Assembly (NCBI GenBank): GCA_963719505.1
Contig: CAVRCF010000001.1
Coordinates: forward strand, 1,152,001 to 1,216,000
From: Halobacteriovoraceae bacterium
Lineage (GTDB): Bacteria; Bdellovibrionota; Bacteriovoracia; Bacteriovoracales; Bacteriovoracaceae
DNA: 64,000 nt
Reading direction: 5' to 3'
Made by a program: the position numbers and the translations under genes. Positions 19,994-37,051 of this stretch are shown here, in pieces. The notes under the pieces are model-generated. The model saw only the letters and a list, made by a program, of their open reading frames with translations, did not search any database and was not told where the DNA came from. Position 1 is the first letter of the stretch. Every line of letters starts with the position of its first letter.

Positions 19994-20692
19994 ATGAAGA
20001 CATATACAATTAGAGATTATGAGTTCGAAGAAGGGCTCTATAAGGCAGATTTCCTTAGAGTTGTCTTAAACGGTGGTCAGGATATAAAAGAAGGTACTGA
20101 TGAGTACAAAGAGCTTATTAAGAATGGGATGAACCTTCACAGAGCAGTTGGTCAGCATAGCGATTATCTACACAAACTTAGAAGAGGTTTTTACTATATC
20201 GGTCCCAAGAATAAAGCTCAGAGAAAAACATTTGATTGGGAGATCATCCACGAGTTTTATCCAGATTTTGTTGTTTCTAGAATCCATGCTTTATATCTCT
20301 GAAAGCTCATTGATAAAGAAGATATTGATCAAGATTCAATTTCTCTAGACTATTCCAGTGAATCGAAAAGAAATACGGGTAAAGAGTTAGATATCAAGTT
20401 GTTAGTTGATGAGCGCTTTAAGCCATACATGTACGACATATATAAATTCAAAAATGGAGCCCAGGTTAAGTGCTACACAAAAGAGAGAGCTCTAATTGAT
20501 GCATTTCTAATAGGGAATAAAGACAATCGAAATATCTACTTTAAGGCTATCAGTCGCTATTTCAAGTCAGAAGGCTTCTCTCCTGAGGTTCTCGAACGGT
20601 TTTCTAAGCTTAAGAAAGTCTTTAAGAGAGAATGCAAGGATATCATTGGCAAATTAGAGCATTTAAACTTTCTGAAGAAGAATAAGCTCTAA
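19994..20692 (+). pseudogene. Second AbiEi-like gene interrupted by in-frame TGA at 20300-20302
   Basis: ORFs 19994-20302 and 20399-20692 share one frame with no other stop; LHKLRRGFY, VVSRIHALYL*KL, YTKERALID align with the 19102 paralog. Confidence 0.75.
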
Positions 20693-20778
20693 AGACTTAT
20701 ACCTAGTTTTTCTTTAGCTTACTAATACTATTGCTAAACATGCTTCACAGGAGAGCTTGGTAGAGTAGGTATCTCCTA

Positions 20779-21393
20779 TTAAGACGATTTCCTCAAAAAC
20801 AGTTCTCTCATGGTTTTCTTTTCGTCGACATGAGAATAATTCTGGACCATTTTTAAACTCATCTTTAAAGTTTGAGCTATCTGTAAATCTGATAGATTCG
20901 AATTCAGAAGAAGTGAAACGTTACTATGTCTGAGACTATGTAGATCTAGGTCATCGCCTAGGTCTTTCCTTATACATCTGTAACAGAGGTTTCTAGAGAT
21001 TCGGCCATCTTTATTCTTGAAGATAAACTCCTGAGGTTTAAGCCTCTTAAAGATTCTTTCCAGTAAAGGGTTTATAGATGGATCAATAGTAATATATCTC
21101 TCAGTATCAAAGTCCTTTTTCTTCTTTAGAACCTTCATCTTTGCTGTGTAGAACCCATCCTCTAAAACGAAGTCTTTCTTCTTTAAAGATAGGGATTCAG
21201 AGATTCGTGCCCCTGAGCAGTAGATAACTGAATAAAGAAGCCTAAAAATTTCATCGATTTCCTCGTCTTGAATAAGAGTATCTAAGAAAGCACTCAGCTT
21301 AGAATCTTTGACAACACAGACCTTTTTACCTTTAGAAGAGGTTGCTCTAACGGATTCGTAGAAAAAGTCTTTATATCTGTCATTAATTTCCAT
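20779..21393 (-). CDS. Small tyrosine recombinase (catalytic domain only)
   Basis: GARISESLSL, HSLRH, C-terminal Y (VQNYSH); AGGAG RBS. Confidence 0.88.
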   Translation of the reverse strand: MEINDRYKDFFYESVRATSSKGKKVCVVKDSKLSAFLDTLIQDEEIDEIFRLLYSVIYCSGARISESLSLKKKDFVLEDGFYTAKMKVLKKKKDFDTERYITIDPSINPLLERIFKRLKPQEFIFKNKDGRISRNLCYRCIRKDLGDDLDLHSLRHSNVSLLLNSNLSDLQIAQTLKMSLKMVQNYSHVDEKKTMRELFLRKSS

Positions 21394-21576
21394 TGATTGC
21401 TCCTATGTCTGAATAAAGAATATCACGTATTGACGCGGCACGCAACAAAATACTCCATATTGTTGCATCGTCTATGAAAAACTTAGTTAAATCGGTAGTT
21501 TAGATGGTTTCAGTCTATTAAAGTTCTCCACAGCTATTTCGATAACTTACAACTGTGGAGGATTGAACTAATAAGA

Positions 21577-21855
21577 TTATTCGTTTAAGGCAAGGTTTTC
21601 TAAATCTCTCTGAACATATTCTAGATTTTGCTCAGCTATTTCGAATGTAATAGTATTTTCTAACTCTCTCTCTATAGATTCTCTCAAACTCGGTCCAACT
21701 TTTCCGCTCTCGTATTCTTTTTGATAATAAGCTTCTTTATCGAACTCACTCATAGTAAAGTGCTTGTATTCAGCAAGTGTTTCTATATACTGCTCAACTA
21801 CTTTGTTTTCGTACCTGTCTCTTTTAATATTTTCATACTCTTGCATATCCAACAA
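21577..21855 (-). CDS. Hypothetical acidic protein
   Basis: ORF overlapping the upstream gene end. Confidence 0.55.
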   Translation of the reverse strand: MLDMQEYENIKRDRYENKVVEQYIETLAEYKHFTMSEFDKEAYYQKEYESGKVGPSLRESIERELENTITFEIAEQNLEYVQRDLENLALNE

Positions 21856-22519
21856 ATCTCTTGAATTGTCGAAAAACTCTTTCGAGTAACGGCTCTGTTT
21901 CTATGTTTTCAGCTACAACATTATAAAACACATCCCTATTTCGTTCGTCGTCAATCACTCTCAACATCTCTCGGCCAATATCCGTGAAATTTTCTCTGAC
22001 TACTTTGTCTTCATTCGCTAGAAGCTTAAGGGCTTCTACTATCTTTGGTTCTAGTTTTTTCGAAAAGGGATTGTAAACGGCGTACTCATTGACTAGCGCT
22101 TCAGACAAAAGCGAAAAGTTGTTTAAAATAAATTTGAAGGATTTTATATCTAGGCTTTTTAGTTTGTGAAGAAGGGTTGGGTGCCTTTCTTTAAGGAGCT
22201 TTGAAAATTTCTCCAGATTCTTTTTTGAGAGAGGAAGCATAGAGACAATACTGTCGAAAAGCTTGTTAGTGATGTCATTTACGAATGTTTCTTCTTCAAT
22301 TTTTTTAGCTGTCTTCTTTTTATCTTTAGCTTTAGTTTTAGCTTTTTTATTAAGCTTCTTGCTAGTTTTTTTACTATCTATAACTTCTTTCTTAGTTATC
22401 TGTGTATTTCCAGATTTATCATTGAAATGGTAGTATGCTCCACCAAAACAAAGAACGGTAACGATTAAAGAAATTCCAATTGCTCCAATTATAATACTAA
22501 TTATTATTCTTAACATCAT
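21833..22519 (-). CDS. Membrane-anchored protein with Lys-rich linker
   Basis: N-terminal TM helix, KKAKTKAKDKKK linker, AAGGAG RBS. Confidence 0.7.
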   Translation of the reverse strand: MMLRIIISIIIGAIGISLIVTVLCFGGAYYHFNDKSGNTQITKKEVIDSKKTSKKLNKKAKTKAKDKKKTAKKIEEETFVNDITNKLFDSIVSMLPLSKKNLEKFSKLLKERHPTLLHKLKSLDIKSFKFILNNFSLLSEALVNEYAVYNPFSKKLEPKIVEALKLLANEDKVVRENFTDIGREMLRVIDDERNRDVFYNVVAENIETEPLLERVFRQFKRFVGYARV

Positions 22520-22593
22520 CCTTCTCCTTGTTGTTTTTCATTTAATATACCTTTCCTGCTTATCTACTTACTCTCTTGTTGTGTTTTCAAATC

Positions 22594-23781
22594 CTAAAAC
22601 TTAGAGATCAGCTGAGCTGTTCCATTTGGATAGATAATTACAATTGAAACCGTCCAAGAAGATGCCCCGCCCCTGGCATAGTTTTGCTTCGAGATATCAG
22701 TTAAATGACCTACGGAGAAGTTCTCTCCTGAATATCCCCCAGCGTGATTATGACCTGTACACGATTTTGGTATGTATTTCTCAGCTGATCTATAATTAAA
22801 GCGAGCCCCGTTACTGCCTTTGTGACCATGGAGACTCATTTCGAACCCACACTCTTGAACCGGAGTATCATCCATAAAATTAATGTTTCTGTTTATTTTA
22901 TGGTATTTTTTCAGTGCTATTTCTATAGTAGGAACTGACTGATTAAGAGATAATGTATTTCTCATAAGTTCTGCTTTTAACTCATGAAGAATAATTTTAT
23001 CAATTTCTGCCGCCTTTCTAAACTTCTCGTCGTCTTTTAGAAAGCGATCTAAAAAGTCATCATGATTTGACTCAACGATATTGAGTGTTTTAAATTTAGA
23101 AGAAATCTTATTAAGAGTTTTGGCTAGGGAAGCAAGTTCTTTTTCTAATGAAACCCCATAAGCTATCTTATTTGTTATATACATAGAGGAGTTAACCTCG
23201 TGCGGGTTTAAACTGATGCCGTCGAAGACATCTCCAACATAAATATTCTTAACTCCTACTTTTTGAGCGTAGTTAGTTGCCCAAGCTAACGATTTCTTAT
23301 CATGAGTAAATTCGTGTAGATCTCCGAACAGACAAGCTTTTGCGTTGCCTTTTTTCCATCCATTCTTTGTAAATAATATTCCGTTATCATAGACTTTATT
23401 GTCTCTTTGAGTGAGATTTCTGATTTCAAACTTAGTATCGTTTTTAACCGAGACTAATAGGGCATATGGCCCAACACCTAAACCAACCATAGCTCTTGTC
23501 GATCTGTTTACTGTCGGTATATGACTTAAGTAGTTCTTATTAGATGACATATAGATAGCGCTGGACCCTTGAGATGCTCTACAGGCAGCCATTTCGCTGA
23601 TCTGAGCACAAGGAAAGACAACAAGATTCTTATTAAACTCTATAGTTACGTACTTATTCTTATTGTTCTTAACAAGTAAGCAGAGCTTAGCCTTATATCT
23701 CTTCTTGATCTGAGCTAAAATCTCAGAACTAAATTCACCAAGGTTCTCTTCTCGAATAATAATATAGTTGGTTGCCTTCAT
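22594..23781 (-). CDS. Calcineurin-like metallophosphoesterase, phage T5 A1-like
   Basis: GDLH, GDVFD, SNHD, HGHKGSNGAR, GHNH, Y..G.SSW...IIYPNG. Confidence 0.75.
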   Translation of the reverse strand: MKATNYIIIREENLGEFSSEILAQIKKRYKAKLCLLVKNNKNKYVTIEFNKNLVVFPCAQISEMAACRASQGSSAIYMSSNKNYLSHIPTVNRSTRAMVGLGVGPYALLVSVKNDTKFEIRNLTQRDNKVYDNGILFTKNGWKKGNAKACLFGDLHEFTHDKKSLAWATNYAQKVGVKNIYVGDVFDGISLNPHEVNSSMYITNKIAYGVSLEKELASLAKTLNKISSKFKTLNIVESNHDDFLDRFLKDDEKFRKAAEIDKIILHELKAELMRNTLSLNQSVPTIEIALKKYHKINRNINFMDDTPVQECGFEMSLHGHKGSNGARFNYRSAEKYIPKSCTGHNHAGGYSGENFSVGHLTDISKQNYARGGASSWTVSIVIIYPNGTAQLISKF

Positions 23782-23790
23782 AGCTCCCCC

Positions 23791-24321
23791 TTAAGCCGCC
23801 AGCTTCGTTGATGCTTTTTTTTGTTTCTTGTTCTCTCTTGCTCTTTTATTATTTTCTGCACTTGTGACAACTTCCAAGTTCTCGGCTCTATTATCTGACC
23901 TAATCTTATTACCGTGATCAACTTGGCATTTGGTGCCCAAAATTAGACCAGTAAAGCATTCGATCATTAATCTATGCACATACATGTTATTCGATTTTCC
24001 TTTACCGATTCCATGGGTAATGTAGCGATATTCATTAGGCTTAGCGGTTAGCTTTCTCTTTTTCCTGGGACCAAATACTTCACCTTTGATATTTATCGAG
24101 AGTGGCAAGTATGGGTGAGCTATCAATTTCTCTTTGAAATTCTTCTTTTTAAACGCCTTAGCCTTAGCAATAGCTTCTTTGAATTTCTTATTGACTAAAT
24201 CAATCTTCTCGACGCCAATCGGTGTCATCGTCTGAGCTTTGATCTTTCTGTCGTTCATCATTTTTTGTGTTTGTGTCATTTTCTTTGCTTTTGCTTTCAT
24301 CTTCTTTGCTTTTGTTTTCAT
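23791..24321 (-). CDS. HNH endonuclease (homing-type) with Lys-rich N-terminus
   Basis: YVHRLMIECF, VDHGNKIRSDNRAENLEVVTSAENN. Confidence 0.88.
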   Translation of the reverse strand: MKTKAKKMKAKAKKMTQTQKMMNDRKIKAQTMTPIGVEKIDLVNKKFKEAIAKAKAFKKKNFKEKLIAHPYLPLSINIKGEVFGPRKKRKLTAKPNEYRYITHGIGKGKSNNMYVHRLMIECFTGLILGTKCQVDHGNKIRSDNRAENLEVVTSAENNKRARENKKQKKASTKLAA

Positions 24322-24549
24322 CTCGCCTCCCAGGCTATTACGTTCTTTAGAGCATTTGCCCGTTCTGGAAAGTAATATACCTTTGTTGAAAAAAAGTGCT
24401 TTTTTAGGGGGTTTAGAATCGAACCATTTGTTACAAACTGTTGTTTTTGTTGGTTTTTTACTGCTTTCGCCATTTTGAGGGTGATTTAAAATAAAACGAA
24501 AGGGAGCTATTTTTTTTTGAGAGGTATATTGTTAAAAACGGACCAAGCG

Positions 24550-24675
24550 ATGGAGCTAATTGTGTTTAAAAGAGAGCCTAGTATTTTAGAGAAGACGATA
24601 GAATCAACAATCGATGTCTTTGTCGTTGGATTTAAAGCTACTCTGTATTTAATAATTCAAATGCTAAGAGAATAA
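24550..24675 (+). CDS. Putative 41-aa peptide
   Basis: MELIVFKREP...QMLRE, just after a promoter-like motif; weak RBS. Confidence 0.4.
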   Translation: MELIVFKREPSILEKTIESTIDVFVVGFKATLYLIIQMLRE

Positions 24676-24698
24676 ATTAAATCACTTCGGAGAGACTC

Positions 24699-24827
24699 AT
24701 GGAAAATAATGAATTTACAATATCTAAGATATGTTTTTTGACCATAGTTTCAGGATTATTCCTTGGAATTCTGGTCACTTATTGGTCTGTTAACGAGATT
24801 ATTCTAGTTATCGAATCACTCCGCTAG
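24699..24827 (+). CDS. 42-aa single-TM peptide
   Basis: GGAGAG RBS; MENNEFTISKICFLTIVSGLFLGILVTYWSV... Confidence 0.6.
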   Translation: MENNEFTISKICFLTIVSGLFLGILVTYWSVNEIILVIESLR

Positions 24828-24893
24828 ACCAAGCGAGGCCCTCTTGAATCTAAAAGGTATATTAAGCAAAACAACAACAACAAGGAGAGGATA

Positions 24894-25388
24894 ATGGAGA
24901 AAGAATTCAACACTACTGTAGAAGACAAGTTTAGAGACGCTCAAAACCTGTTTAAGCAACAACTAAGGAGTAACAACAAGGCTGAGAAAGCTATTGGTCT
25001 AGTATTTTTCTCCCTAACTACTTCGTGGACTCTAGTCCTTATTCATAGCTATCTCTTTTCTACTTATTTCGATAAAAGCTTTAAGGATCTTTATATTCTA
25101 ACTGTTTTCATCTCCATACTTTTTTCTGGAGGCTTGGATTATTCCCTATTTGCTCTCTTCAGATTTACAACGAGCAAAGTGGTATTAATCGTCAATATCG
25201 TACTTTTCTCATATCTATATTATGTAGTTGGAACTCATTCGCTTTTAATTGGACTGGCTATCAACATTGCTCTTCTGTTTTATAGATTCTTAGCACCCAG
25301 TAAGTACTTGATGTTCAGTAATGAATTTATAGATGAGCAGCAAGCTAACCTTAATATCAAATCAACAGATTTATGTAAAAGACACTAG
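24894..25388 (+). CDS. Multi-pass membrane protein
   Basis: About four TM segments, AAGGAGAGG RBS. Confidence 0.75.
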   Translation: MEKEFNTTVEDKFRDAQNLFKQQLRSNNKAEKAIGLVFFSLTTSWTLVLIHSYLFSTYFDKSFKDLYILTVFISILFSGGLDYSLFALFRFTTSKVVLIVNIVLFSYLYYVVGTHSLLIGLAINIALLFYRFLAPSKYLMFSNEFIDEQQANLNIKSTDLCKRH

Positions 25389-25397
25389 GAGGTCATA

Positions 25398-25868
25398 ATG
25401 CATCTTAATAAATTAATATCAGCACAACGATTAGCGGCATCAGAGCAAAATAGCTTTCCGGCTACAGTATCTCCTAAGGCTGATTACGTAATTAAATTTT
25501 TGTTTGCTGTTTTGCTATATCCTCTTTATTTACTATTCAAAGTTAAAGAGAGTATTTTAAATTCTTTTAAAAATAGAAGAACCACCAAGGTATGGGATGA
25601 CGAAGATCAAGAGTTTAAAAACACTCAAGCCGCCAGTGAAACTATCGCCTACGATACAAACCTTCTTCATAGCATAAGAATTATCTTTTCTTCTTTTATG
25701 ATGATTGATGATGATAACAAAGAAAGAAGGTTTTATCACCAATACTACAACGTCACCGAGCTAATCGCTTATGTATCATCACTATATAGACATGTGGACT
25801 ATATTTTACTTTGCGTGTTTTATACAGGGTTCTTGGTAAGATTCATGAAATTCGTATTGGAGTCGTAA
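25398..25868 (+). CDS. Membrane protein
   Basis: AGGAGG RBS, two hydrophobic segments, TAATG coupling to the next gene. Confidence 0.7.
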   Translation: MHLNKLISAQRLAASEQNSFPATVSPKADYVIKFLFAVLLYPLYLLFKVKESILNSFKNRRTTKVWDDEDQEFKNTQAASETIAYDTNLLHSIRIIFSSFMMIDDDNKERRFYHQYYNVTELIAYVSSLYRHVDYILLCVFYTGFLVRFMKFVLES

Positions 25869-28465
25869 TGGAAGATAAATATATGTATTTAATTATTGCC
25901 GTTTGCCTTTTATTTGTAATCCCGGTAATAAAGTTACTTGGTTGGCTTTTAAGTAAGATTATTCGTGTTAATCCAATTCATGATAAGAATTATTATGACA
26001 AGATTAATAGAGAGAATAATAACGGGGGAGAGACTCCATATGGGGAGTTACTTACCTTAAGAGATCTTACTGTTATACAAAAGACTCGAAAGGTTTATAA
26101 CTATACAGATAATCTTGGATACCAAAGAAGAGAAGAGAGGGAGATTGAAGAGACTATTTATCCATCTGTTAAGAAGATAAAAAATGGTGTCCAAATCCAT
26201 TTCAGCGAAGAGTTAAGGAATACTGAGTTTACAAAAGATAGCTATACTCGATATATCGCTGATGTTTTTAACCAGAATTCTGTTACTGAGACTAAGAAGC
26301 TCCTAATGGTGAGAACTCCAAATCCATATATTGTTAATTACTTCCAAGTACATCCAGTTAATTACATGTTTAAGACGCCAATTGATGAGGATAGTGAGTT
26401 TAAAGCCAAACTCGATAAAGTATTAGATAAAGACAGCGCAGAACTTCTATTTGGAGAACCTCAAGTTGAATTAAACGTTCCGGATCAGATAGTTTGGCCA
26501 TTAACAGCTTCTCCTCATGTATTAGTTGCTGGTCAGACAAGATCCGGTAAGACTAAGACTATACTTAGTTTTATAACTCAAATTGCTACTGTCTATCCAG
26601 AGTCTAAATTTTTCTTCGCTGATGGTAAGAGTTCACCTGACTATGATCATTCTGCGGAATTTTTATCATCTCTACCTGTAGCAAAACCCCACCATAGTGA
26701 AGATCCATTAGTGAATCTCGCTTACATGGTTGATAAGGTGTGGGCAGAATATGAGAATCGTAAGAGATTATTTGAAGAACTAGCAGTTAAAGGAAATTCA
26801 TGTAGTACCTATATTGAGTATAATAATTATGTAGATGAAAAGCTCCCTCGTGTGTTTTTATTTATTGATGAATTTGCAGCGTTTTGTTTACTTGCCCCAG
26901 ATAAGGTAGCCTCTCTATTAACAGTCAAAGGTACTCTATTTAACAAGATTAGAAGATTGCTCGCAGAATCGGCTTCATATGGGTTTAGTATTATAATAGC
27001 TTCTCAAAGGGTACAAAATACGGATTTCCCAACTGCAATTCGTGATAATCTAACTACGTGGCTTATCCATTCAGTAAATGAGAAAGCTGCTGAATTTCTT
27101 GATCTTAAAGGGAAGGTGGGGAAACTTAAGCCTGGAGCGTTCATATTGAAGATACAAGGTTTAAGGTGTGAAAACTCTGGCGAAGCTAATATCGAATCAA
27201 GATTGCCTTATGTCGGTAACGAGCCTCAAAAGGTTAAGACCTTAAAGAAGGATATAGTTAAAGAATCTTTTGATGAAGATTACATTTATACTACTGGACT
27301 TGATACTGATTATTCCAAGCTTCCTCCTAATTCATTAAAGAAATATGTAAAGAACCTATTTTGTGTAAGAGAAGGTTTTGAAGTTATCAAGAATGAAGAT
27401 GCTGAACATGATCACCTTTCTCTGTTTGTTAAGAAAGGTAATAAGCAATATGCAATTGGTTTCGTTGAAGTAGATGAGCTTATAGATGAAACATTCTATA
27501 CTCGTTTAAATCGATTTCTTTCAGATGAAGAGAAGCTAATGCAGAAGATTTTTTTTGTAAGAGGTAATATTACCTCAAAAGCTAAAGAAACAAATATCTC
27601 TGAACTAGTTGATATGAACGGTGATATCGCCCTAATACAGCAGGATTATGTGCGTAGGCTTAAGAAGGCTAAGAAGCTGTATGATGATGGGGATAGTGAA
27701 GAGATCTTCTCTGCATTACTTGTTGGTATCAAAGCAGATGAGAAGAAAGAAGCTCTTTTAATCGACAAGAAGGATGCTGAGCTAGGAAGTGTTGAGATCT
27801 CTATTAACGAATTAGAAAGGATCAATAATCTCTCAGGATCTTCTGATGCCCAAAAGATAGCTAAAGGGGAGCAGTTTGAGAGATTCGTTCACGCTCTATT
27901 TAGACAAATTGGTTGGACTACATACACCCCAGAACTGCTATTCGCTAAGAGGATCTATAAAAGACCTGGCGATGTTGGGGATTTAGGGCTGGATATGTTA
28001 TTAGCTAAAACAGATACGGATCTCAGAGAACTATCGCAAGAAGAAGCTGATAATAGAGTTGCTGTACAGATCAAGAATTGGAACTCAGCAATTCCGGCAA
28101 AGGTTCTTGGTGAAGTATTGAGATCCTACCACAATTTTAAATGTCTCAAGAATGGAACTCCTATCAAAAAAGGGATGGTTGTCTCAACGTCCACATACAC
28201 CCAATATACAAAGTTAGAGGCTTCAAATCAAGGAATAGAGCTCATAGGATACAATGACCTAAGAAAGCTCGTTATAGACGCTGTGAGGGACGCTCAGAGC
28301 GCAGGAGAAGCACATCAGGCTATCCCTTTTGCTGAGATGGATAGAGATGAGCAAATCCTTCATTTAAACGAGCAAGGACTAAGTTTGAGAGATATCGCTA
28401 CTAGAGTAGGGGTTAAGTCTCCATCTACTGTTAGGAACGTATTGAAAAAAGCGGAGGCTGCATGA
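25868..28465 (+). CDS. FtsK/SpoIIIE-family ATPase fused to Mrr-like restriction endonuclease and C-terminal HTH
   Basis: N-terminal TM; PHVLVAGQTRSGKT Walker A; FIDEF Walker B; ASQR; GEQFE...GDLGLD...AVQIK; GLSLRDIATRVGVKSPSTV. Confidence 0.88.
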   Translation: MEDKYMYLIIAVCLLFVIPVIKLLGWLLSKIIRVNPIHDKNYYDKINRENNNGGETPYGELLTLRDLTVIQKTRKVYNYTDNLGYQRREEREIEETIYPSVKKIKNGVQIHFSEELRNTEFTKDSYTRYIADVFNQNSVTETKKLLMVRTPNPYIVNYFQVHPVNYMFKTPIDEDSEFKAKLDKVLDKDSAELLFGEPQVELNVPDQIVWPLTASPHVLVAGQTRSGKTKTILSFITQIATVYPESKFFFADGKSSPDYDHSAEFLSSLPVAKPHHSEDPLVNLAYMVDKVWAEYENRKRLFEELAVKGNSCSTYIEYNNYVDEKLPRVFLFIDEFAAFCLLAPDKVASLLTVKGTLFNKIRRLLAESASYGFSIIIASQRVQNTDFPTAIRDNLTTWLIHSVNEKAAEFLDLKGKVGKLKPGAFILKIQGLRCENSGEANIESRLPYVGNEPQKVKTLKKDIVKESFDEDYIYTTGLDTDYSKLPPNSLKKYVKNLFCVREGFEVIKNEDAEHDHLSLFVKKGNKQYAIGFVEVDELIDETFYTRLNRFLSDEEKLMQKIFFVRGNITSKAKETNISELVDMNGDIALIQQDYVRRLKKAKKLYDDGDSEEIFSALLVGIKADEKKEALLIDKKDAELGSVEISINELERINNLSGSSDAQKIAKGEQFERFVHALFRQIGWTTYTPELLFAKRIYKRPGDVGDLGLDMLLAKTDTDLRELSQEEADNRVAVQIKNWNSAIPAKVLGEVLRSYHNFKCLKNGTPIKKGMVVSTSTYTQYTKLEASNQGIELIGYNDLRKLVIDAVRDAQSAGEAHQAIPFAEMDRDEQILHLNEQGLSLRDIATRVGVKSPSTVRNVLKKAEAA

Positions 28466-28875
28466 ACAAATCAGATATAATTGAGAAGATCGAAACTCTT
28501 AAGAGTATGCCTGTTTTTAAGAAAAGGTTCTTGTCTAAAGATGGGTATCTAATTCCCATTAGGCTCACAATCATCAAATCGAACAAGATTAATGCCTGCG
28601 TATACAAACAAGGATCAAGAAGGGATGTCGCCAATATGAACGTTAATTCGTCATATTTTGGTTTAACTGAGAATCAGAAACTTTTCATTATAGCGCATGA
28701 GATGACCCATATTTTACATAGGGACTATTCTTTCATAGGGGCTCATTTACCTATAGTTTCTCGCATTAAAGAGAAAAGGGCAGATATAACAGCCGCCAAA
28801 GTATGTCGAGATATGGGTATTGATATGGGTGAAATTATAGAACTATTTAAGGGGCCACAAAAGAGGAATATTTAG
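28462..28875 (+). CDS. HEXXH zinc metallopeptidase-like protein (ImmA/IrrE/M48-like)
   Basis: FIIAHEMTH...EKRAD; ATGA overlap with the FtsK gene. Confidence 0.75.
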   Translation: MNKSDIIEKIETLKSMPVFKKRFLSKDGYLIPIRLTIIKSNKINACVYKQGSRRDVANMNVNSSYFGLTENQKLFIIAHEMTHILHRDYSFIGAHLPIVSRIKEKRADITAAKVCRDMGIDMGEIIELFKGPQKRNI

Positions 28876-28940
28876 CAGGATAGCTTCGTTTCTTGAGGAC
28901 TCCCATCCATCTCATTATGATCGATTTCAATACCTCAAGG

Positions 28941-29123
28941 TGTTCATTCAAGTGTCCATTTAGCTGTTCATATCTGTCCAATCCAGATTGAACGGCCGTT
29001 CATTTCAAATTCTAAATTGCTGTAATTACATGAGAATGAACACTTAACAGGTGAAATGAACAGGTTTCAGAGAATATTTGTGTGTGACGGAATATATTGA
29101 TAATTATCGATATATTTTGAACA
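28941..29123. repeat. TGT(T/C)CA direct/inverted repeat array
   Basis: Direct copies at 28941, 28953, 28965, 28975; palindrome TGAACGGCCGTTCA at 28989-29002; inverted TGAACA at 29037, 29057, 29118. Confidence 0.65.
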
Positions 29124-29296
29124 GCAGATGTTGGATGAGGGAGAGGAGAGCCTCATATATTAAGCCCTTAGATTATATACATATAAATATTATTTAATTA
29201 GTTGTTTAGTTAGTTGCTTAATGAGCTTACGTAGATCACTGACTCCTATGATCTTTATGTAAGCTCACTAACTTCATACTTACACAACCTTTTGGA

Positions 29297-29893
29297 CTAT
29301 CTTGATTTATCTAGATCAACTCTGTATTCAGTCCCTAGTTTGCCTTCGATCTCGTGATAAGTTAGCACAAAATCTTTTGTCATTATGACCTCTCCAGCTT
29401 GGATTACTTTAGGATTATTAAATCCCTCATTTATAGCTTTCTCTAGTTCTAAAGCATTCTTCCTCTTAACCTTATTGCGCTTCATCCCAAGGCAGTGAAA
29501 ACCAGAACAATCCCATTTCATAAGAGCTTTTTTAGCTTGTTGTTTAAGTGCTTCAACATCAGAAGAATTGTCTATGTAAAGAGAATAGTCATCCAAGGTT
29601 TTATATTCAATATGTTTCACATCTTTATCATGGGTGTAGGTAACTTTCACATTGAATTTCTTTGTTATAACTTCTAACCCAGATCTGATAATTTTGATCT
29701 CCTCTTTGCCTACTTGATCAAGAACTTCTATTTTGTGATTGAGAGTCGTTCTATTTTCATTGTTTATTGTCTCGTAATATCTATCTCTGATCTTCTCATT
29801 TAATGAGTTGCTTACTTCCTCTGGTAGAGAAGAGGTACAACTAGCAAAAAATAGAATTGATATTACACTAAGTAGGTTTCCGATTTTGATCAT
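29297..29893 (-). CDS. Lipoprotein, hypothetical
   Basis: Lipobox FASC; AAGGAG RBS. Confidence 0.75.
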   Translation of the reverse strand: MIKIGNLLSVISILFFASCTSSLPEEVSNSLNEKIRDRYYETINNENRTTLNHKIEVLDQVGKEEIKIIRSGLEVITKKFNVKVTYTHDKDVKHIEYKTLDDYSLYIDNSSDVEALKQQAKKALMKWDCSGFHCLGMKRNKVKRKNALELEKAINEGFNNPKVIQAGEVIMTKDFVLTYHEIEGKLGTEYRVDLDKSR

Positions 29894-30013
29894 TTATTCT
29901 CCTTTTTGGTTTCGTTATGAAGTGTTGCCTTTTAGTATTATAGCACAGTATGTAACGATGCGTTAGTGTTAATTTAAAATGGTTCTAGTTTCATTATTTG
30001 GAGATAATCAATG

Positions 30014-30288
30014 AAAAGCGACCACCAATAAATTTTATATAAAAAAGCGACCACCAATAAATTTTATATAAAAAAGCGACCACCATTAAATTGTTTAAAA
30101 GCGACCACCTCAAGTGTTTGAAATATCGATCAGGTGATCCATTTTAAAAAGCGACCACTAGTTTTGCTAAGTATTTGATACTACATAAAAGCGACCACCT
30201 TTAATTGGATCTGGTCCGAAAAAAGGACGTAAATAGCCGTAAATATGCTGGATTAGGTGGTCTCACTAATAATTAATAAAAGCGACCA
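30014..30288 (+). repeat. Iteron-like array AAAAGCGACCA(CC) x7
   Basis: Copies at 30014, 30043, 30072, 30097, 30147, 30187, 30278; inverted GGTGGTC at 30256; IHF consensus at 30168-30180. Confidence 0.9.
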
Positions 30289-30304
30289 TTAAGAAGAAAT
30301 CTTA

Positions 30305-30829
30305 TTAGAATCTTGGGGGTGGAGAACAAAGAAGTTTTCTTTCCTGATTATCTCCAACACATTCTTTTACATATTTATCGTTATGAAGATTTGGTGTTCT
30401 AGAGCAGTCCCACTCTTGAAGTTGTTTGAAAGCGTAACTTTCATCCAATTTCCAAAAAGTCGTATGAACAGCAAGAGAATATTCGCTCTGATTTTTTTCT
30501 ATTACATAAGTAAACATCTGTTTCTTTGGGTCCACTTTTGTGATCTTATAGAACAATCCTCTTTTTTGATCGATCAAACATTTTCCTACGCTGATTTGAT
30601 TCCACTTCAACATGTCATAAGTATTCTGATACGGTCTATTTGGAAGCTTGTCACCGTCAGTTAGTTTAACTGGGGCGACTCTCGCTTTTTGCTCTTCACT
30701 AGCTCCTAAGAGCGCTGAACCTTCTGGCATATTAACAACTGAAATTTCTGTACACTTACCATCTCGACAAACAATTTCACCGAAAGCAATTGTAGAAGTA
30801 AGTAAGCTAATTAAAATTAATAGTCTCAT
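30305..30829 (-). CDS. Secreted Cys-containing hypothetical protein
   Basis: Signal peptide, six Cys, AAGGAG RBS. Confidence 0.75.
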   Translation of the reverse strand: MRLLILISLLTSTIAFGEIVCRDGKCTEISVVNMPEGSALLGASEEQKARVAPVKLTDGDKLPNRPYQNTYDMLKWNQISVGKCLIDQKRGLFYKITKVDPKKQMFTYVIEKNQSEYSLAVHTTFWKLDESYAFKQLQEWDCSRTPNLHNDKYVKECVGDNQERKLLCSPPPRF

Positions 30830-30904
30830 TTGATCTCCTTGTTTCTAGTATATCACAGAAATGTTACAATATGCGTAGTTTTATGTGTTTTTAGCAGTTT
30901 GTAA

Positions 30905-31459
30905 CTAAGCTACAGAACGTTGCCATTCCTCATCTTCGTCATCAAAGTGAGAATCAAGTAAAGTCCCTCTGTAAAAAAGCTCAGGAAAAGCATCCACAAC
31001 GGAATCGATCTCCTCAATTGTAGTGTCTAGGGCAATGATCATGTGATTCAAATCCATTTCAGTCTGTAGTAGCTGGAAAATTTGTCTTTGTTTCGAATTC
31101 AAACGACTAAGGCCTTCTACTGGTATCTCGACAGCTACATCTTTAAACTGTACTGAAGAGAGCGGTGGAACTATCCCTGTTGTTATTGCTATCCTGGAAT
31201 CCCAATCAATGATTCTTTTTATAGCTTCTTCATTAATTAAACTGTTAATAGAAGCGGTGATATGAGTTTCGAGATCAGATTCTTCCGAATCCCAAGTTCT
31301 CAAGCCTAGCCAAATAGCGATATTTCCTAATTGTGAAACTTCTTCTCGATAGAAAGAGTCCTCAATCATAATTGAGTCAGCAATTTTCTGAATCAACGGT
31401 CTAAATTTAGCTAATTGGTTTTTAAAAGTCTCTTTTTCGCTTTTCTTTGAGTTTTTCAC
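30905..31459 (-). CDS. Degenerate sigma-70-family-like protein
   Basis: FRPLIQKIA...EEVSQLGNIAIWLGLRTWD...LETHITASI resembles region 2; LSRLNSKQRQIFQL resembles the start of region 4; GGAG RBS plus GTG. Confidence 0.6.
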   Translation of the reverse strand: MKNSKKSEKETFKNQLAKFRPLIQKIADSIMIEDSFYREEVSQLGNIAIWLGLRTWDSEESDLETHITASINSLINEEAIKRIIDWDSRIAITTGIVPPLSSVQFKDVAVEIPVEGLSRLNSKQRQIFQLLQTEMDLNHMIIALDTTIEEIDSVVDAFPELFYRGTLLDSHFDDEDEEWQRSVA

Positions 31460-31805
31460 ATCTATTCTCCATTAGTTGTATAAAGCCTTATGCTTCGTAT
31501 CCGTAATATACCTTTCAAGTTGAAGATCTGTTCAGAGGCTCGTACAGATGCTTCTCATATCAATATACATGCTCTGAAAGCTCCATATCGGCTTATACAG
31601 GCCTTTCAGAGGCTTTCTTTGTGTTTGGGCTTGGACTAAGGCTCTAAAAGGCTTATATATAGCTTCTAGAGATGATTTGATGTTGCTCTTTCGTTTTATG
31701 ATATTATCTCTAAATTAGAGGTAATTTTTTGGGTTGATCGGGAGAATGTTGGAGATACTCAGAAAATGCTCGTTTTTGAGCTAAGTTATTGAAAATATTC
31801 GTTGT

Positions 31806-31833
31806 CTTTAACATAATGATACTTATCTAATAA
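31806..31833 (-). other. dif-like XerC/XerD recombination site
   Basis: Minus strand TTATTAGATAA-GTATCA-TTATGTTAAAG: 11-6-11 layout; XerD arm matches TTATGTTAAAT at 10/11. Confidence 0.75.
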
Positions 31834-31943
31834 TACACTCACTTTAATCTTATTATTACACCTCATCTCTAATTTATTATTCCTCATTTATATATCTACC
31901 ACTAAACCTTTTTTTTCAGGGATTTTCACTTTTGACGATAAAT

Positions 31944-33125
31944 TTACGCTACTAATTTGTAGCTAGAATCTATATCGTAAAGAGCTCTCATTGTATCTAC
32001 CATTATGATGTATAATTCGTCTCGATGCTGCTTTTTTACGATTATCGAATCATGTACAGTCAGACAAGCGATCTCTTTACTATTTAGCACCTTTATACAC
32101 TCTATCATGATGCTAGAATCTTCTTTCTGTAGTCTAGTTCCTTCTTGTCTGTAGAAGAACTCAGAAATGGCTTTATGCTTATCTTCAATCGCTGCAACAA
32201 GAGCTACAACCTTCTTTCTAACCCTCTTTAGGTTAAATTCATCAAATCCTTCTTGAAGCTTATTAAAAATCGAATTCACAGCAACCCCGTAAGATTTAGA
32301 ATTTAACATTATTAAAAGGGCTATTTTGATATCATCTCTCGAGAATCCATGGATGTTATAAATATCTTCAGGTCTTTTAACATCCTTTGCTAGATACAGA
32401 AGGGTTGGGTGCAGAGCTTTAAAATCGATTTCTACCGTTGCTTCGTTGTCAAATGTGATCGTTTCTCTTTCGGATTTTGATAAATTCGTGCAGCTATTAT
32501 AGATTCGGCCGCCTAAATTCAAATCGGAAGAACTATAGACAATGCTGAGTTCCAGAGAACATAAAGGCCTGAAGGCTGTATCAATGATAGTGTTGTTTAG
32601 AAGCTCTACGTGTTTGCTCATTATCGAGTCTCGGTACTGGATCTCAGTTTTTTTATCAGCATCTATTTGGACTTGGACCTTAGTCTTTATACCTTTTTTG
32701 GATTTGTCTTTTTCCTGAGCCCGGGCTCCTCTCCAAATCACCGTCCTAACTAACACCTTATCTATCTCATCCTTATTTTCAGCAAATATCTTTTCGAGTT
32801 TCTGGGTACGCTTTATTCTTGTTGGTATCTTTTGCTTCTCACTTACTGAATGCATCACTAGAGTCACATAGGCATTATTATGAAGCCACTCTATAATAGG
32901 CGATACTGTATACTGATTAAAACTTAATGTCCTGAATTTAGACACTCCAACCAATTCATGCTCGAGATAAAGATTGATTAAAGTTAAGTGAAGGAAATCG
33001 CGGTGCTTATGCCCTCTAAGCTTTTTACCTAAAGATTTGATGTATTCATCGTAAATCAAATCTGTAACTATCCCTGAAAAAGGCTTGATATAATCTCTGA
33101 ATTTCTTGTAATCAACTTGATACAT
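31944..33125 (-). CDS. Stand-alone family-A polymerase-like palm-domain protein
   Basis: GGRIY; motif A EIDFKALHP; motif B-like RDDIK; LQKEDS; motif C TVHDSII; GGAGAG RBS before ATG 33125. Confidence 0.7.
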   Translation of the reverse strand: MYQVDYKKFRDYIKPFSGIVTDLIYDEYIKSLGKKLRGHKHRDFLHLTLINLYLEHELVGVSKFRTLSFNQYTVSPIIEWLHNNAYVTLVMHSVSEKQKIPTRIKRTQKLEKIFAENKDEIDKVLVRTVIWRGARAQEKDKSKKGIKTKVQVQIDADKKTEIQYRDSIMSKHVELLNNTIIDTAFRPLCSLELSIVYSSSDLNLGGRIYNSCTNLSKSERETITFDNEATVEIDFKALHPTLLYLAKDVKRPEDIYNIHGFSRDDIKIALLIMLNSKSYGVAVNSIFNKLQEGFDEFNLKRVRKKVVALVAAIEDKHKAISEFFYRQEGTRLQKEDSSIMIECIKVLNSKEIACLTVHDSIIVKKQHRDELYIIMVDTMRALYDIDSSYKLVA

Positions 33126-33413
33126 TATTCTCTCCATTTGAAGTTTCAAAAAATGTTGAAACTTGGCCATAGCTCCATTATACCTTCGAAGATTTTTTCT
33201 CTCGATGCCCCATAAACATTGGTCTTCAGAGTCTTTTTAAGTGATTGATTTCCCTTCCTTAAATTACAAAGTGTCAAATAGCTGAACAGCTTCACCATTC
33301 AAAGTGTTTAGTTTGAATACAAAGCCTTGAGCTCTGAGTTTTTGATTATTTTCGTCTCGAACTAAAAAGGTATATTTACAGAAACAGAGAAGAAAGAAAC
33401 AAAAGGAGTTCAG

Positions 33414-33905
33414 ATGAGGTTGATATGTATGATAATTTTATTTTTTGCTAGTTTAGAGGTTTTTTGCCAAAGCCATATTGTGAGGCAAGGTGAGAAACTT
33501 GAAAACATTGTTTCTGAGAGATCCGGGCTTAGTGGATATGATCTGATTCTTGAGGTAGGTAGAATTTCTGCTCTCAATGAGCTTGGCAACCCTCATCATA
33601 TTGAACCTGGCCAGATTATCTCGTTCGATCCTGAAGAAAAATCAAAGAGAACTATTAAAACGATCGTTAAAAAAGTCTATATCGTCACCCCAGAAAAACT
33701 AAACACCCTTTCAACTTCATTCGGTCTATCTCGAACCCAAGCTAACTGGAGGGTCGATGCAAATCAAAGAGATGTGAATATAAGTTATGAGTGGGAAACA
33801 AATGTTCGTCTTAATTACATACGTCATTTTAAAAATTCTGACTTCAATGCTGGAGGTTATATCGGAAACTCTGAATTTGGAGCATCTATCGGTTGGGATT
33901 TCTAA
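33414..33905 (+). CDS. LysM-domain exported protein with C-terminal beta-signal
   Basis: HIVRQGEKLENI...LNELGNPHHIEPGQII; ends FGASIGWDF. Confidence 0.75.
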   Translation: MRLICMIILFFASLEVFCQSHIVRQGEKLENIVSERSGLSGYDLILEVGRISALNELGNPHHIEPGQIISFDPEEKSKRTIKTIVKKVYIVTPEKLNTLSTSFGLSRTQANWRVDANQRDVNISYEWETNVRLNYIRHFKNSDFNAGGYIGNSEFGASIGWDF

Positions 33906-33970
33906 TAAAGGTATATTTTACTTGTGAATAATACACGCACAATGCCTGAGTAGGCAAAGAGAGGTTTTTT

Positions 33971-34636
33971 ATGTTTAAGTTATTGAAAAAGGGAATCAAG
34001 ATTATTGTTCTAACTGTCATCGCACTGATTTTAGGTTTTAAAATGTGCTCCGGTCCAGACAAAGAAGTTATTAAAAAAACACCACAACCAGAAGAATCAT
34101 TGTCTTTTAAGATTCCCAAAAGCTTGGTTGGTAAGCAAATTTATACATGCGATATTCAATCTTTGTACAATGTAGAAGTGACTGCTGAATGTGCATGTAC
34201 TCAAAGCGAGTGCAATTTCAAAGTTAAGCCTATCGATTTGTTTTGGAGTGCTGATTTAAAATTAAATATTGGAGATGGAAATACAATCTATCGCTCTTAC
34301 AAAAGAGATAGGGATTATTCAGGAAGTTGTACTGGATCTAGTTTTAGCGGGTGCGATAATTGGGAAAAAAGAAAAGAAGAAGTTATAGATAGTAAAGAAA
34401 CTATTCATAAACTAAAAGTTAATAGATGGATTGAAAGATATGCACAGAGAGAAAAAGAGAAAACCTGTGAAATTTCTGAGCAAATCAACGCTGAAGTGAC
34501 TACTGAATGTGCATGTACCAAAACAGAGTGTCTTGTCGGGATCACTCCAACGTATGATAAATGGGATGTAGAGCTCAAAATCAGTACCAAAGATAAAAAG
34601 CCCAAGTTCTACCGATTACATTCAAAAAGAAAATAA
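33971..34636 (+). CDS. Membrane-anchored Cys-rich protein with internal duplication
   Basis: TC..EVT.ECACT..EC motif occurs twice. Confidence 0.7.
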   Translation: MFKLLKKGIKIIVLTVIALILGFKMCSGPDKEVIKKTPQPEESLSFKIPKSLVGKQIYTCDIQSLYNVEVTAECACTQSECNFKVKPIDLFWSADLKLNIGDGNTIYRSYKRDRDYSGSCTGSSFSGCDNWEKRKEEVIDSKETIHKLKVNRWIERYAQREKEKTCEISEQINAEVTTECACTKTECLVGITPTYDKWDVELKISTKDKKPKFYRLHSKRK

Positions 34637-34697
34637 AGAGCACGTCTTAAATAAATTGTATTAGGCCCTACGGGGCTTAATTCCTTAAGGAGGAAAG

Positions 34698-35951
34698 ATG
34701 AAAAAAATATTTTTTTTACTATTAACAATATCTAGTTTGATCTCGTGTAGCAAAAAGGAAGACACGAAATTAGTTGATGCATTCGACATTCCACCAGTTA
34801 AGCAAACTAATAATACGCCTGTGAGTTCTAATGATTCAGTTCTAACGAGGTTCAATAGAGTTTATAATGACTCTCTACAAGCTTCTGATAGCGATTCTGA
34901 CCCACTTGTGTATTCATTGGTGACTAATGCCTCAAATGGAGTTGTTGTAATTACAGATAGCTCTTCAGGCTCTTATACATATACTCCCAATACTGGTCAT
35001 GTAGGAGCTGATAGTTTTGAGTTTAAAGTAAACGATGGAACAGAAGACTCTAACACTTCTCTTGTGAACATTGACGTTAAAAACCCCGAAACAATCTATG
35101 TCGGCACTAGCAATGGACTATCAATTTCTACTGATGGCGGTTTAACTTTTGTAAATAGACTGGAGACTTTAGATGTTAAAGATATTCAAATAACGGAGTC
35201 GGGCGATATCTATGTCGGAACAAACTTCGACATTTATATTTCTACTGATGGAGGTTCAACCTTTACTTCAAGATACTATGGTAGTGATGATTTCGTTAGT
35301 ATGTATATTGACAGCTCAGGCGCTATCTTTGTTGCGACAGACTGGGAACTGCTAAAGTCTACAAATAACGGACTGTCATTCAATTCTTTACTCTCTTCTT
35401 CATTGTTACAATCGGTAGATGGCGATGATTCAGGAAATATTTATGTTAGTTATGAGCTCTTTGGTTTTTCTATCTCTACTGATGGAGGAAGCAACTTTAC
35501 TAATTATTCAACAGCAAATGGACTTGGAAGTGATGATTTGTTTTCTTCTTTTGTAGATACTAACGGAACAATCTATGCATCAACCTTTAACGGTTTATCA
35601 ATTTCGACTGATGGAGGAAGTAACTTTACTAACTATACAACTGTAAATGGACTTGGAAGTGATGATTTGTTTTCTTCTTTTGTAGATACTAACGGAACAA
35701 TCTATGCATCAACCTTTAACGGTTTATCAATTTCGACTGATGGAGGAAGTAACTTTACTAACTATACAACTGTAAATGGACTTGGATCTAATCAAATAAC
35801 TTCAGTTTTTGCTGATGGCTTTGGTGGTGTTTACGTAGGAACTGTTAATAGTTTCAATATATCATTCGATAGTGGAGAGACTTTCATTAATTTAACAACA
35901 GCTGCCGGTTTAGCCGGTAATGGCGTCAGTGAATTAGTAGTAATAGAGTAG
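34698..35951 (+). CDS. Lipoprotein with Ig/cadherin-like domain and Asp-box (BNR) beta-propeller repeats
   Basis: Lipobox LISC; YTYTPN..G.DSFEFKVNDG; repeated STDGG.F. Confidence 0.85.
   Translation: MKKIFFLLLTISSLISCSKKEDTKLVDAFDIPPVKQTNNTPVSSNDSVLTRFNRVYNDSLQASDSDSDPLVYSLVTNASNGVVVITDSSSGSYTYTPNTGHVGADSFEFKVNDGTEDSNTSLVNIDVKNPETIYVGTSNGLSISTDGGLTFVNRLETLDVKDIQITESGDIYVGTNFDIYISTDGGSTFTSRYYGSDDFVSMYIDSSGAIFVATDWELLKSTNNGLSFNSLLSSSLLQSVDGDDSGNIYVSYELFGFSISTDGGSNFTNYSTANGLGSDDLFSSFVDTNGTIYASTFNGLSISTDGGSNFTNYTTVNGLGSDDLFSSFVDTNGTIYASTFNGLSISTDGGSNFTNYTTVNGLGSNQITSVFADGFGGVYVGTVNSFNISFDSGETFINLTTAAGLAGNGVSELVVIE
35516..35786 (+). repeat. Exact 129-bp intragenic tandem duplication
   Basis: AAATGGACTTGGA... 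recurs at 35516, 35645, 35774 with identical intervening sequence. Confidence 0.9.
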
Positions 35952-35974
35952 AAGTGTAAATTTCCAGATTTGAT

Positions 35975-36175
35975 CTATCTTATGACTTGAACTGGAACCG
36001 CATATCTCTCATTATTCGATATCTGGGATTCAACAGTCCCAGATATATTAACATGACTGTAATCAATTACTTTTTCTATTCTTGAATACATAATCACATT
36101 AATGATTAAAATAAATAAAAGTAGGACGTTTGATCGTTCTGTCCAGATTTGTTGTACAATTTTGTTATCTTTCAT
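35975..36175 (-). CDS. Small single-TM protein
   Basis: GGGAG RBS; one hydrophobic helix. Confidence 0.55.
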   Translation of the reverse strand: MKDNKIVQQIWTERSNVLLLFILIINVIMYSRIEKVIDYSHVNISGTVESQISNNERYAVPVQVIR

Positions 36176-36341
36176 TTTTAACTCCCATTACTCACTAATT
36201 TTAACATGAATTCTCTTATTCAGAGTGAGACTTTGTCTTAATTTATATTAAGCCTCAAGTCGTTAATCCAATATCTTCATATTAAGATGAAATTAATCCC
36301 GTTTTATTGTATAGTATCTATATCAAGTACTAAAGGAACTT

Positions 36342-37010: not shown

Positions 37011-37051
37011 TAACGACTAGCAAAGAAATAGATTTAACAACTCTGATAGGA

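Follow-up and report, generated by a model that had tools for sequence, protein, structure and literature searches.

Promoters with a single -10-type element and no -35 element are known from phages. The T4 late promoters (TATAAATA) are of this kind and are read by gp55, a truncated divergent phage sigma; T4 late transcription also requires gp33 and the sliding clamp. Promoters of Group 4 (ECF) sigma factors are bipartite, with an AAC-type -35 element and a CGT-type -10 element, and an autoregulatory layout is typical of these sigmas. T7-type promoters are defined by approximately 17-23 conserved bp that span the start site. Here we describe an 11-nt word, AAAGGTATATT, that stands upstream of genes of a 22.7-kb integrated island in a 64,000-nt stretch of the genome of Halobacteriovoraceae bacterium (contig CAVRCF010000001.1, positions 1,152,001 to 1,216,000). 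This whole stretch is called the window below, and coordinates are given within it. We put at roughly 0.55 the probability that the word is the promoter element of a single-element regulon of the island, which would be read by a sigma-like protein of 184 amino acids (aa) encoded in the same island and would work like gp36 of phage phiEco32.

The sigma factor gp36 with its promoters is the closest known counterpart. According to PMC8948821, it serves six promoters with one element, tAATGTAtA; transcription starts 6-8 bp downstream of this element, and there is no -35 element. The N-terminal domain of gp36 is described as sigma2-like and seated on the clamp helices of the beta' subunit in PMC12276001. 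Another family, TV-Pol, matters for a polymerase gene of the island. Iyer, Abhiman and Aravind described it in 2008 as a predicted primase-polymerase of transposons and viruses; the hallmarks that they give are a beta-hairpin arginine, two palm aspartates, a fingers aspartate and an RxxxK motif (PMC2579912). For CcPol of SCCmec, priming of DNA synthesis together with its partner MP has been shown (PMC10061031).

The 11-nt motif in the island and in the genome

The window contains six exact copies of AAAGGTATATT, against 0.08 expected from dinucleotide shuffles, and none of 100 shuffles reached six. Two further copies are variants: AGAGGTATATT, with one mismatch, is found at 24520 on the plus strand, and GAAGGTATAAT, with two mismatches, occupies 33177-33187 on the minus strand. 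A preliminary description of this DNA had listed all six exact sites and both variants, and a word search bore out their coordinates and strands. It had also placed every copy between genes, in the orientation of the following gene and about 20-55 nt before a start codon. This is true for 8/8 copies, with measured distances of 19-53 nt from the motif end to the start codon. Approximately 19% of the island is intergenic according to our own gene list, which gives P ~2e-6 for eight of eight copies being intergenic.

The leftmost exact copy, 22544-22554 on the minus strand, lies 24 nt before ATG 22519 of a membrane protein gene (21833-22519), which is followed by an open reading frame (ORF) at 21577-21855. 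The next exact copy, 24374-24384 on the minus strand, lies 52 nt before ATG 24321 and heads the genes of an HNH endonuclease (23791-24321) and a phosphoesterase (22594-23781). Divergent from it is the one-mismatch copy (24520-24530, plus strand), 19 nt before ATG 24550 of a small ORF, after which comes a second small membrane ORF, 24700-24828. The exact copy at 24853-24863 (plus strand) precedes ATG 24894 by 30 nt and heads two membrane ORFs, the gene of an FtsK-like protein and an M48-like ORF. On the minus strand, the exact copy at 31505-31515 is 45 nt away from GTG 31459 of the sigma-like ORF and has a weak -35-like TGAACA at 18 nt. The two-mismatch copy at 33177-33187 (minus strand) precedes the TV-Pol gene by 51 nt if counted from ATG 33125, and by 6 nt if counted from ATG 33170. 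Finally, two exact copies on the plus strand, 33366-33376 and 33907-33917, precede a secreted 163-aa ORF (37 nt before ATG 33414) and a Cys-rich 221-aa ORF (53 nt before ATG 33971); the latter is followed by the gene of a Big_9/BNR-like lipoprotein (34698-35951). A GGAG-like ribosome site is present before seven of the eight downstream starts, the exception being the small ORF after 24520. The AAAGG part of the motif was considered as a Shine-Dalgarno sequence and rejected, because the start codons are not at a constant short distance from the motif.

The conserved block is exactly 11 nt long, and the information content is at background on either flank. Seven further one-mismatch matches are present in the window, all of them outside the motif cluster at 22544-33917; one of these, at 16073, sits within the integrase ORF. 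In words with two mismatches the island is not richer than the rest of the window. A literature search on the motif word itself returned unrelated papers only, judging by the list of results.

In the whole genome (3.69 Mb in five contigs) the exact word occurs 12 times, including the six copies in the island. The six copies outside the island represent five independent loci, and every one of them is within open frames. Long open frames enclose four of them. The remaining pair, on contig C4, counts as a single locus, since an inverted duplication in the assembly (90.7-94.1% identity) has doubled it; in the duplicate with intact frames, the motif lies antisense within a 319-aa frame. At the rate seen outside the island, six copies in 22.7 kb correspond to a Poisson P of ~1e-12. 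The comparison of the island with the rest of the genome, which had been suggested earlier as a check, shows the motif to be island-specific: no exact copy outside the island is intergenic. Nor is the exact 11-mer equally frequent at host promoters across the whole genome, an outcome that had been named as contrary to a dedicated regulon. Counts in 236 other genomes of the family do not rise above background and are like those of the reversed control word. A cluster of three copies in a same-genus genome (G034, C86:1513-7571) was dismissed, since the sequence there is ordinary chromosome and is not homologous to the island.

No TTGACA-like -35 element was found at a spacing of 15-19 nt across the eight motif sites. 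Its absence had previously been noted for four copies, and it extends to all eight. The best match to the -35 hexamer is 4/6, at 31505 and 33177 only, with at most 3/6 at the remaining six sites. Within 90 nt, TTGAC is found in 14/32 of the host tRNA upstream regions and in 7.5% of random 90-mers, versus 0/8 of the 90-nt stretches ending at motif copies. For the pattern TTGACn-(16-18)-TAnnnT, the corresponding values are 9/32, 0.27% and 0/8. The bases at -15/-14 are AG in 8/8 copies, versus the TG of extended -10 promoters. The features of a host housekeeping promoter, a TTGACA-like -35 element at 16-18 nt or TG at -15/-14, are seen at none of the eight sites. A T7-type promoter is not seen either, as conservation is limited to 11 nt and does not extend into the flanks. 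The RpoD protein of the host has a canonical region 2 sequence.

The bases A at -11 and T at -7 are kept in 8/8 motif copies; these are the bases flipped out by sigma-70-family proteins. At six of the eight sites there is an A at +7 after the motif, which makes this position a plausible start site. The information is contained in the 11-mer only, without a -35 consensus, as in the single-element promoters of the phiEco32 gp36 type. Over positions 19000-38700, i.e., most of the island, matches to the sigma-70 consensus number 54 versus 68.6 in shuffles. Two motif copies come close to this consensus: TCGAGA-17-TATAAT at 33177 agrees with it in 10/12 positions, and TGAACA-18-TATATT at 31505 in 9/12.

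Another word, CTCTGAA, is also enriched in the island (15887-38637), where 14 copies are present versus 4.1 expected from the genome rate, i.e., 3.4-fold more. Its first six letters, CTCTGA, precede the motif copies at 31505, 33177, 33366 and 33907 by 16-38 nt, with variable spacing. We did not adopt CTCTGAA as a -35 element, because its distance to the motif varies and it also occurs in coding sequence.

The sigma-like protein and other candidate readers of the motif

The proposed reader of the motif is the 184-aa product of the sigma-like ORF at 30905-31459 (minus strand). Pfam Sigma70_r2 matches its residues 18-75 with an E-value of 0.021, and two NCBIfam models, PRK06759 and TIGR02937, match it with E-values of 0.0024 and 0.025. 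These matches are sub-threshold and agree in place (residues 10-132). In the ESM Atlas the top matches score 0.96; 20 of 30 belong to the Sigma70_r2 set, and phage clusters prevail. In a MAFFT alignment the ORF is weakly colinear with the ECF sigmas of the host via regions 2.2, 2.4 and 4.1, and LSRLNSKQRQIF of the ORF is set against host ECF region 4.1. A search of 238 genomes of the order gave one other match only, a 578-aa frame of one genome (G047; E 0.0046). Among 1350 ORFs of the collected loci, the ORF found only itself (two matches) and the same frame (E 0.00075). The frame was judged to be a chance match and not a relative.

Docking of the sigma-like protein on beta' gave an ipSAE of 0.82 in each of three runs, whereas none of three controls exceeded 0.01. 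The mark used for docking is reached by 51/78 solved complexes and by 2/108 mismatched pairs. The runs share at least 55% of contacts, and the partner has a predicted local distance difference test score (pLDDT) of at least 62. The docked interface is formed by residues 261-301 and 319-324 of beta', i.e., the clamp-helix coiled-coil, and by residues 34-50 of the ORF, which align with sigma region 2.2. The sigma-like protein is thus placed on the clamp helices as sigma2 is, in the model only. At this level the docking shows a likeness to sigma2, and it is not a demonstration of binding.

A number of observations weigh against the assignment of the ORF as a sigma that reads the motif. The ORF is an orphan, with one cluster (99% identity) among 5.8 billion proteins. 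All curated cut-offs are missed: Sigma70_r2 gives 15 bits versus 24, PRK06759 gives 17.6 versus 133, and TIGR02937 gives 14.2 versus 42.9. The second part of the protein, residues 100-184, reaches just 0.86-0.88 in the Atlas, with some Sigma70_r4 clusters. Comparison with four host ECF sigmas by hhalign gave a probability of 0.5%, the PHROGs search found nothing at E ≤ 10, and a phmmer search of PDB sequences (E ≤ 10) found no sigma, only chance matches to ribosomal proteins. The single-sequence AlphaFold model has a pLDDT of 36.5 and is unusable for fold comparison. The docking target consisted of residues 1-350 of beta' as encoded in another genome of the genus, borrowed because rpoC of the window's own genome is frameshifted in the assembly. 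The docking result may also reflect memory of solved sigma-beta' complexes. Finally, the motif itself has a good -10 hexamer and G at -14, which is compatible with a host sigma.

The polymerase-like ORF, which the preliminary description had named as the other possible reader, is located at 31944-33170 (minus strand). It encodes 408 aa from ATG 33170, the likely start being at 33125, and it matches phrog_4756 with an E-value of 7.8e-44. We assign it to the TV-Pol-type minimal family-A polymerases. Its family has 10,205 representatives at E ≤ 0.001 and is not covered by Pfam. The AlphaFold (AF2) model built from a 95-sequence alignment has a pLDDT of 84.7. A Foldseek search of the PDB put apicoplast PolA, Taq, Klenow and mitochondrial RNA polymerase on top (E 2.4e-5 to 1e-3), with a TM-score of only ~0.3, the targets being larger. 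Family-A DNA polymerases come first in the order of matches, followed by mitochondrial T7-like RNA polymerases at ranks 30, 32 and 44. In BFVD there are full-length matches to phage proteins of ~430 aa with a TM-score of ~0.6. The predicted structure thus has a family-A fold.

In the 95-sequence alignment (A2) four residues do not vary (R222, D249, K282 and D374), and conservation reaches at least 90% at D269 and R278. All TV-Pol hallmarks are present: the hairpin arginine is R222, the palm aspartates are D249 and D374, the fingers aspartate is D269, and R278 and K282 form RxxxK. The ORF also resides in a mobile element, as the island has two tyrosine recombinases. Motif C is VHDS, with S375 at least 90% conserved; we take this to be the T7 RNA polymerase form, as opposed to the HDE form of Pol I. 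Relatives of this ORF, in 34 viral-contig loci and 12 genome loci, are at most 33% identical to it. No repeats of the 10-mer AAGGTATATT turned up in the set of loci scanned, to which the 12 genome loci do not belong. Because of the precedent of the family and the seven iterons adjoining the gene, we consider a role as replication primase-polymerase more likely for the ORF than the reading of the motif.

One of the relatives belongs to a parallel element. In another genus of the family, a 198-kb contig (G106:C104, loci L047 and L048) encodes a TV-Pol homologue with 33% identity. Divergent beside it is the gene of a 750-aa protein, the C-terminal part of which matches the phosphoesterase of the island (31-33% identity). 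RecA, a helicase and SLT are also encoded there. This contig has a word of its own, CGATTGAGWA/TTCGATTGAGTA: by our own count, 44 of the 62 copies in the genome are on it, and the reversed control of CGATTGAGWA has 27 copies across the genome. The word sits directly upstream of ribosome sites and start codons, frequently as divergent pairs. No sigma detectable with Pfam is encoded on the contig. As this element has its own word before its genes, private promoter words may be common among such elements.

Three other explanations of the motif have to be weighed. A host sigma could read it, either sigma-70 through TATATT with G-14 as in an extended -10 promoter, or some other host factor of the sigma-70 family. 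In this case AAAGG would be bound by an activator or a repressor from the island, and the sigma-like ORF would have another role, e.g., as an anti-sigma-like or appropriator protein acting on RNA polymerase. Indeed, TATATT agrees with TATAAT in 5/6 positions, and TATAAT itself is present in the 33177 variant, which with TCGAGA at 17 nt reaches 10/12 of the sigma-70 consensus, the copy at 31505 reaching 9/12. The host carries eight Sigma70_r2 matches (two of them within the duplicated stretch of contig C4), and the matches of the island ORF to sigma families are below threshold. However, TG is found at -15/-14 in 0/8 copies, which have AG there, and 6/8 sites match TTGACA in at most 3/6 positions, whereas recognisable host promoters have a clear TTGACA. 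The 8-mer core, GGTATATT, is not enriched in the host genome (128 copies versus ~250 reckoned by hand from base composition), and none of the exact 11-mers outside the island is intergenic. Besides, exact identity over 11 nt in 6/8 copies is tighter than in host promoters. We regard a host sigma as the main rival reader, possible but rather unlikely. It is improbable, in our opinion, that the 11-mer is mainly the operator of an island DNA-binding protein, such as the FtsK-Mrr protein, through its C-terminal helix-turn-helix (HTH), or a repressor that escaped recognition, with sites that overlap unrelated weak promoters and silence the core genes while the island is integrated. Exact repeated words before core operons do suit a repressor regulon, the FtsK-like protein has a terminal HTH (HTH_38, 4.9e-5), and the island has to stay quiescent when integrated. 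Yet the word is neither palindromic nor paired, is co-oriented with the downstream gene in 8/8 cases and holds a hexamer of the -10 type. Nothing else that resembles a promoter element is conserved nearby, and sigma-70-like matches are not enriched over 19000-38700 (54 versus 68.6 shuffled).

The third explanation is that TV-Pol (31944-33170) reads the motif, either by transcribing from it as a very small RNA polymerase of the single-subunit kind or by priming synthesis at the word. Its fold does match family-A polymerases including the mitochondrial T7-like RNA polymerases, and its motif C is VHDS, presumably the T7 RNA polymerase form. The distant element on the 198-kb contig combines a TV-Pol homologue (33%) and its own word, CGATTGAGWA, with the lack of a Pfam-detectable sigma. 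Against this, a protein of 408 aa is probably too small for the N-terminal promoter-binding domain and the specificity loop of T7-like enzymes. T7-type promoters are of ~20 nt, and an 11-nt word with unconserved flanks is unlike them; with its fixed relation to ribosome sites, such a word suits a promoter of the sigma type better. Co-orientation with genes and a fixed relation to ribosome sites are unexpected for priming sites, and the seven iterons that adjoin the gene suit a role in replication. The family is, moreover, a predicted replication primase-polymerase, and CcPol with MP is shown to prime DNA synthesis (PMC2579912, PMC10061031). We consider this explanation very improbable. We give hardly any credence to its most specific form, in which the 408-aa TV-Pol is a minimal promoter-specific single-subunit RNA polymerase, approximately half the size of T7 RNA polymerase, that starts at AAAGGTATATT, and in which each TV-Pol element has its own private word. 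In that form, the different word on the 198-kb contig would suggest private words per TV-Pol element.

The earlier proposal of a dedicated regulon read by either the sigma-like or the polymerase-like protein is thus supported by computation in one part and not in the other. The motif is island-specific, placed as promoters are and devoid of a -35 element, and the weak region 2 signals and the docking on clamp helices point to the sigma-like ORF. The polymerase-like ORF finds no support as the reader, being of a TV-Pol type whose relatives are predicted (one of them shown) to be replication primase-polymerases, with seven iterons nearby.

If the motif is read by the island's own sigma, AAAGGTATATT would be the sole recognition element of a private promoter class of the 22.7-kb element integrated at tRNA-Arg. 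It would be an element of the -10 type, TATATT with A-11 and T-7, with AAAGG as an upstream extension, and transcription would start approximately 7 nt downstream. The eight copies would drive the core units of the island: the membrane protein, the HNH endonuclease with the metallophosphoesterase, the small ORF, the operon of the FtsK-like translocase, the sigma-like gene itself, the TV-Pol replication gene and two secreted or surface proteins. The reader would be the host core RNA polymerase with the 184-aa protein. The N-terminal half of this protein would be seated on the beta' clamp helices like sigma region 2, and the 11-mer would be recognised without a sequence-specific -35 element. Since the sigma-like gene has the motif upstream, it would be autoregulated, and the circuit would be self-amplifying through positive feedback. 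The copies with a weak host-type -35 element (31505 and 33177) could provide the first transcripts by means of host sigma-70.

Boundaries and gene content of the island

The island has a unit length of 22,723 bp, is set at a tRNA-Arg gene and is bounded by a 28-bp direct repeat with 100% identical copies. The integration target is tRNA-Arg (TCT) at 15835-15911 on the plus strand, as found by ARAGORN. One copy of the repeat (direct repeat family D7), attL, is in the 3' end of this gene (15887-15914, plus strand), and the other copy, attR, is at the right end of the island (38610-38637, plus strand). A tyrosine integrase gene adjoins the tRNA (16010-17251, plus strand; Pfam Phage_integrase 9.2e-10, phrog_1 2e-25) and has no motif upstream. 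The left part of the island is free of the motif. It includes, besides the integrase gene, small lipoprotein-like ORFs, AbiEi-like fragments and a second small tyrosine recombinase. In particular, at 19102-20692 there is an AbiEi-like ORF (211 aa, AbiEi_4 E 0.0016) followed by two shorter ORFs on the opposite strand that resemble a split second copy. This region of the left arm is a possible remnant of an abortive-infection or toxin-antitoxin module.

The motif-bearing core spans 21.6 to 36 kb. The HNH endonuclease (23791-24321, minus strand) is recognised by Pfam HNH_3 (2.3e-12). The metallophosphoesterase (22594-23781, minus strand) matches phrog_1745 (1.8e-50), a family named "DNA transfer protein" that we take to be the A1 family of phage T5. 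The FtsK-like protein is an 884-aa fusion of FtsK/SpoIIIE, Mrr_cat and HTH domains (25811-28465, plus strand; Pfam FtsK_SpoIIIE 2.2e-7, Mrr_cat 3.1e-12, HTH_38 4.9e-5), and the M48-like ORF (28462-28875, plus strand) matches Peptidase_M48 with an E-value of 6.3e-6. Neither the phosphoesterase nor the FtsK-like protein has relatives in viral contigs. Searches against Pfam and PHROGs detected no capsid, portal, terminase or tail families in the island, the one exception being a weak similarity between the FtsK-like protein and the large-terminase family phrog_2666 (E 9.8e-5). Therefore, judging by its gene content, the island looks more like an integrative, replicating element that bears a translocase than like a prophage.

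Seven direct iterons AAAGCGACCAC (six exact and one with one mismatch, 0.58 expected) are located at 30015-30289 on the plus strand, several of them at a spacing of 29 bp. They occupy the gap between two lipoprotein-like genes and are outside the set of promoter motifs. They probably belong to a replication origin, or else are repeats recognised by the FtsK-like translocase. Between the stop codon of TV-Pol and the motif copy of the sigma-like gene, ~430 nt (31516-31943) contain no convincing ORF; repeated TATAAGCC words and a stem-loop at 31599-31615 are found there.

The sole close relatives of TV-Pol and the sigma-like ORF (98-99%) are on one contig of 22,652 bp from another assembly, in which the TV-Pol copy is just 249 aa long. 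The contig is close to the island in length, and the element might be able to exist, or be assembled, alone, e.g., as a free circle. The assembly of the genome studied here is error-prone. In particular, the rpoB-rpoC-rpsL-fusA region (G000:C1:219000-225600) is split into many short frames, and contig C4 (G000:C4:1-45000) has a 19-kb inverted duplication with 91-94% identity, one copy of which is frameshifted. The completeness of the genome is given as 83.5%. With such frameshifts and the inverted duplication, the boundaries of the island genes may be imperfect, and the motif counts are unaffected.

Comparison with known systems

The polymerase ORF, taken separately, resembles the TV-Pol family including CcPol of SCCmec in its hallmark residues, in the predicted family-A fold and in being carried by a mobile element with an integrase. 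It differs in that neither a D5-like helicase nor an SSB-like partner could be recognised next to it.

The sigma-like protein is similar in size to Group 4 (ECF) sigmas, shows weak colinear similarity to them over regions 2 and 4 and has sub-threshold matches to TIGR02937 and Sigma70_r2. As in their typical layout, the sigma-like gene carries the promoter word itself. Unlike ECF promoters, those proposed for the island have no conserved -35 element, and their -10 element is like the housekeeping TATAAT. There is also no evident anti-sigma gene beside the sigma-like ORF, and its profile scores are all under the cut-offs. The T4 late promoters share with the island the single -10-type element. 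In contrast to T4, relatives of gp33 and of the sliding clamp were not seen in the island, where no search was aimed at them.

The likeness to phiEco32 is the most extensive. In both cases a mobile element encodes a small and highly divergent sigma or sigma-like protein (214 aa in phiEco32, 184 aa here), and there are few promoters with one highly conserved element of 9-11 nt that includes GTATA and no -35 consensus. The clamp helices are the seat of the gp36 N-terminal domain, and the model docks residues 34-50 of the island protein at the same place. In contrast, the two proteins have no detectable sequence relation, with nothing at E ≤ 10 in PHROGs and no sigma in the PDB search. The island protein is thus not a homologue of gp36, and the island would work like this system without being its member. 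In addition, phiEco32 is a lytic phage, whereas the island is integrated and has no recognisable virion genes, and a co-factor like gp79 was not identified in it. By analogy, the island looks like the same solution as in phiEco32 with an unrelated-looking protein.

If this is true, an orphan 184-aa sigma and an 11-nt single-element promoter would make up a compact self-contained transcription module, carried by an integrated and apparently non-viral element instead of a lytic phage. The -35-independent promoter recognition of the phiEco32 and T4 style would then extend to chromosomal islands. The whole induced regulon of the island would be simple to predict, and the pair of sigma and promoter would be an orthogonal one for an AT-rich host. 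Very divergent sigmas that are missed by Pfam could be flagged if a promoter word private to an element is found and the candidate protein docks on the clamp helices of beta'. Mobile-element sigmas with single-element promoters of their own are already known; new here would be the orphan status of the sigma-like protein and its carrier, which is not a phage.

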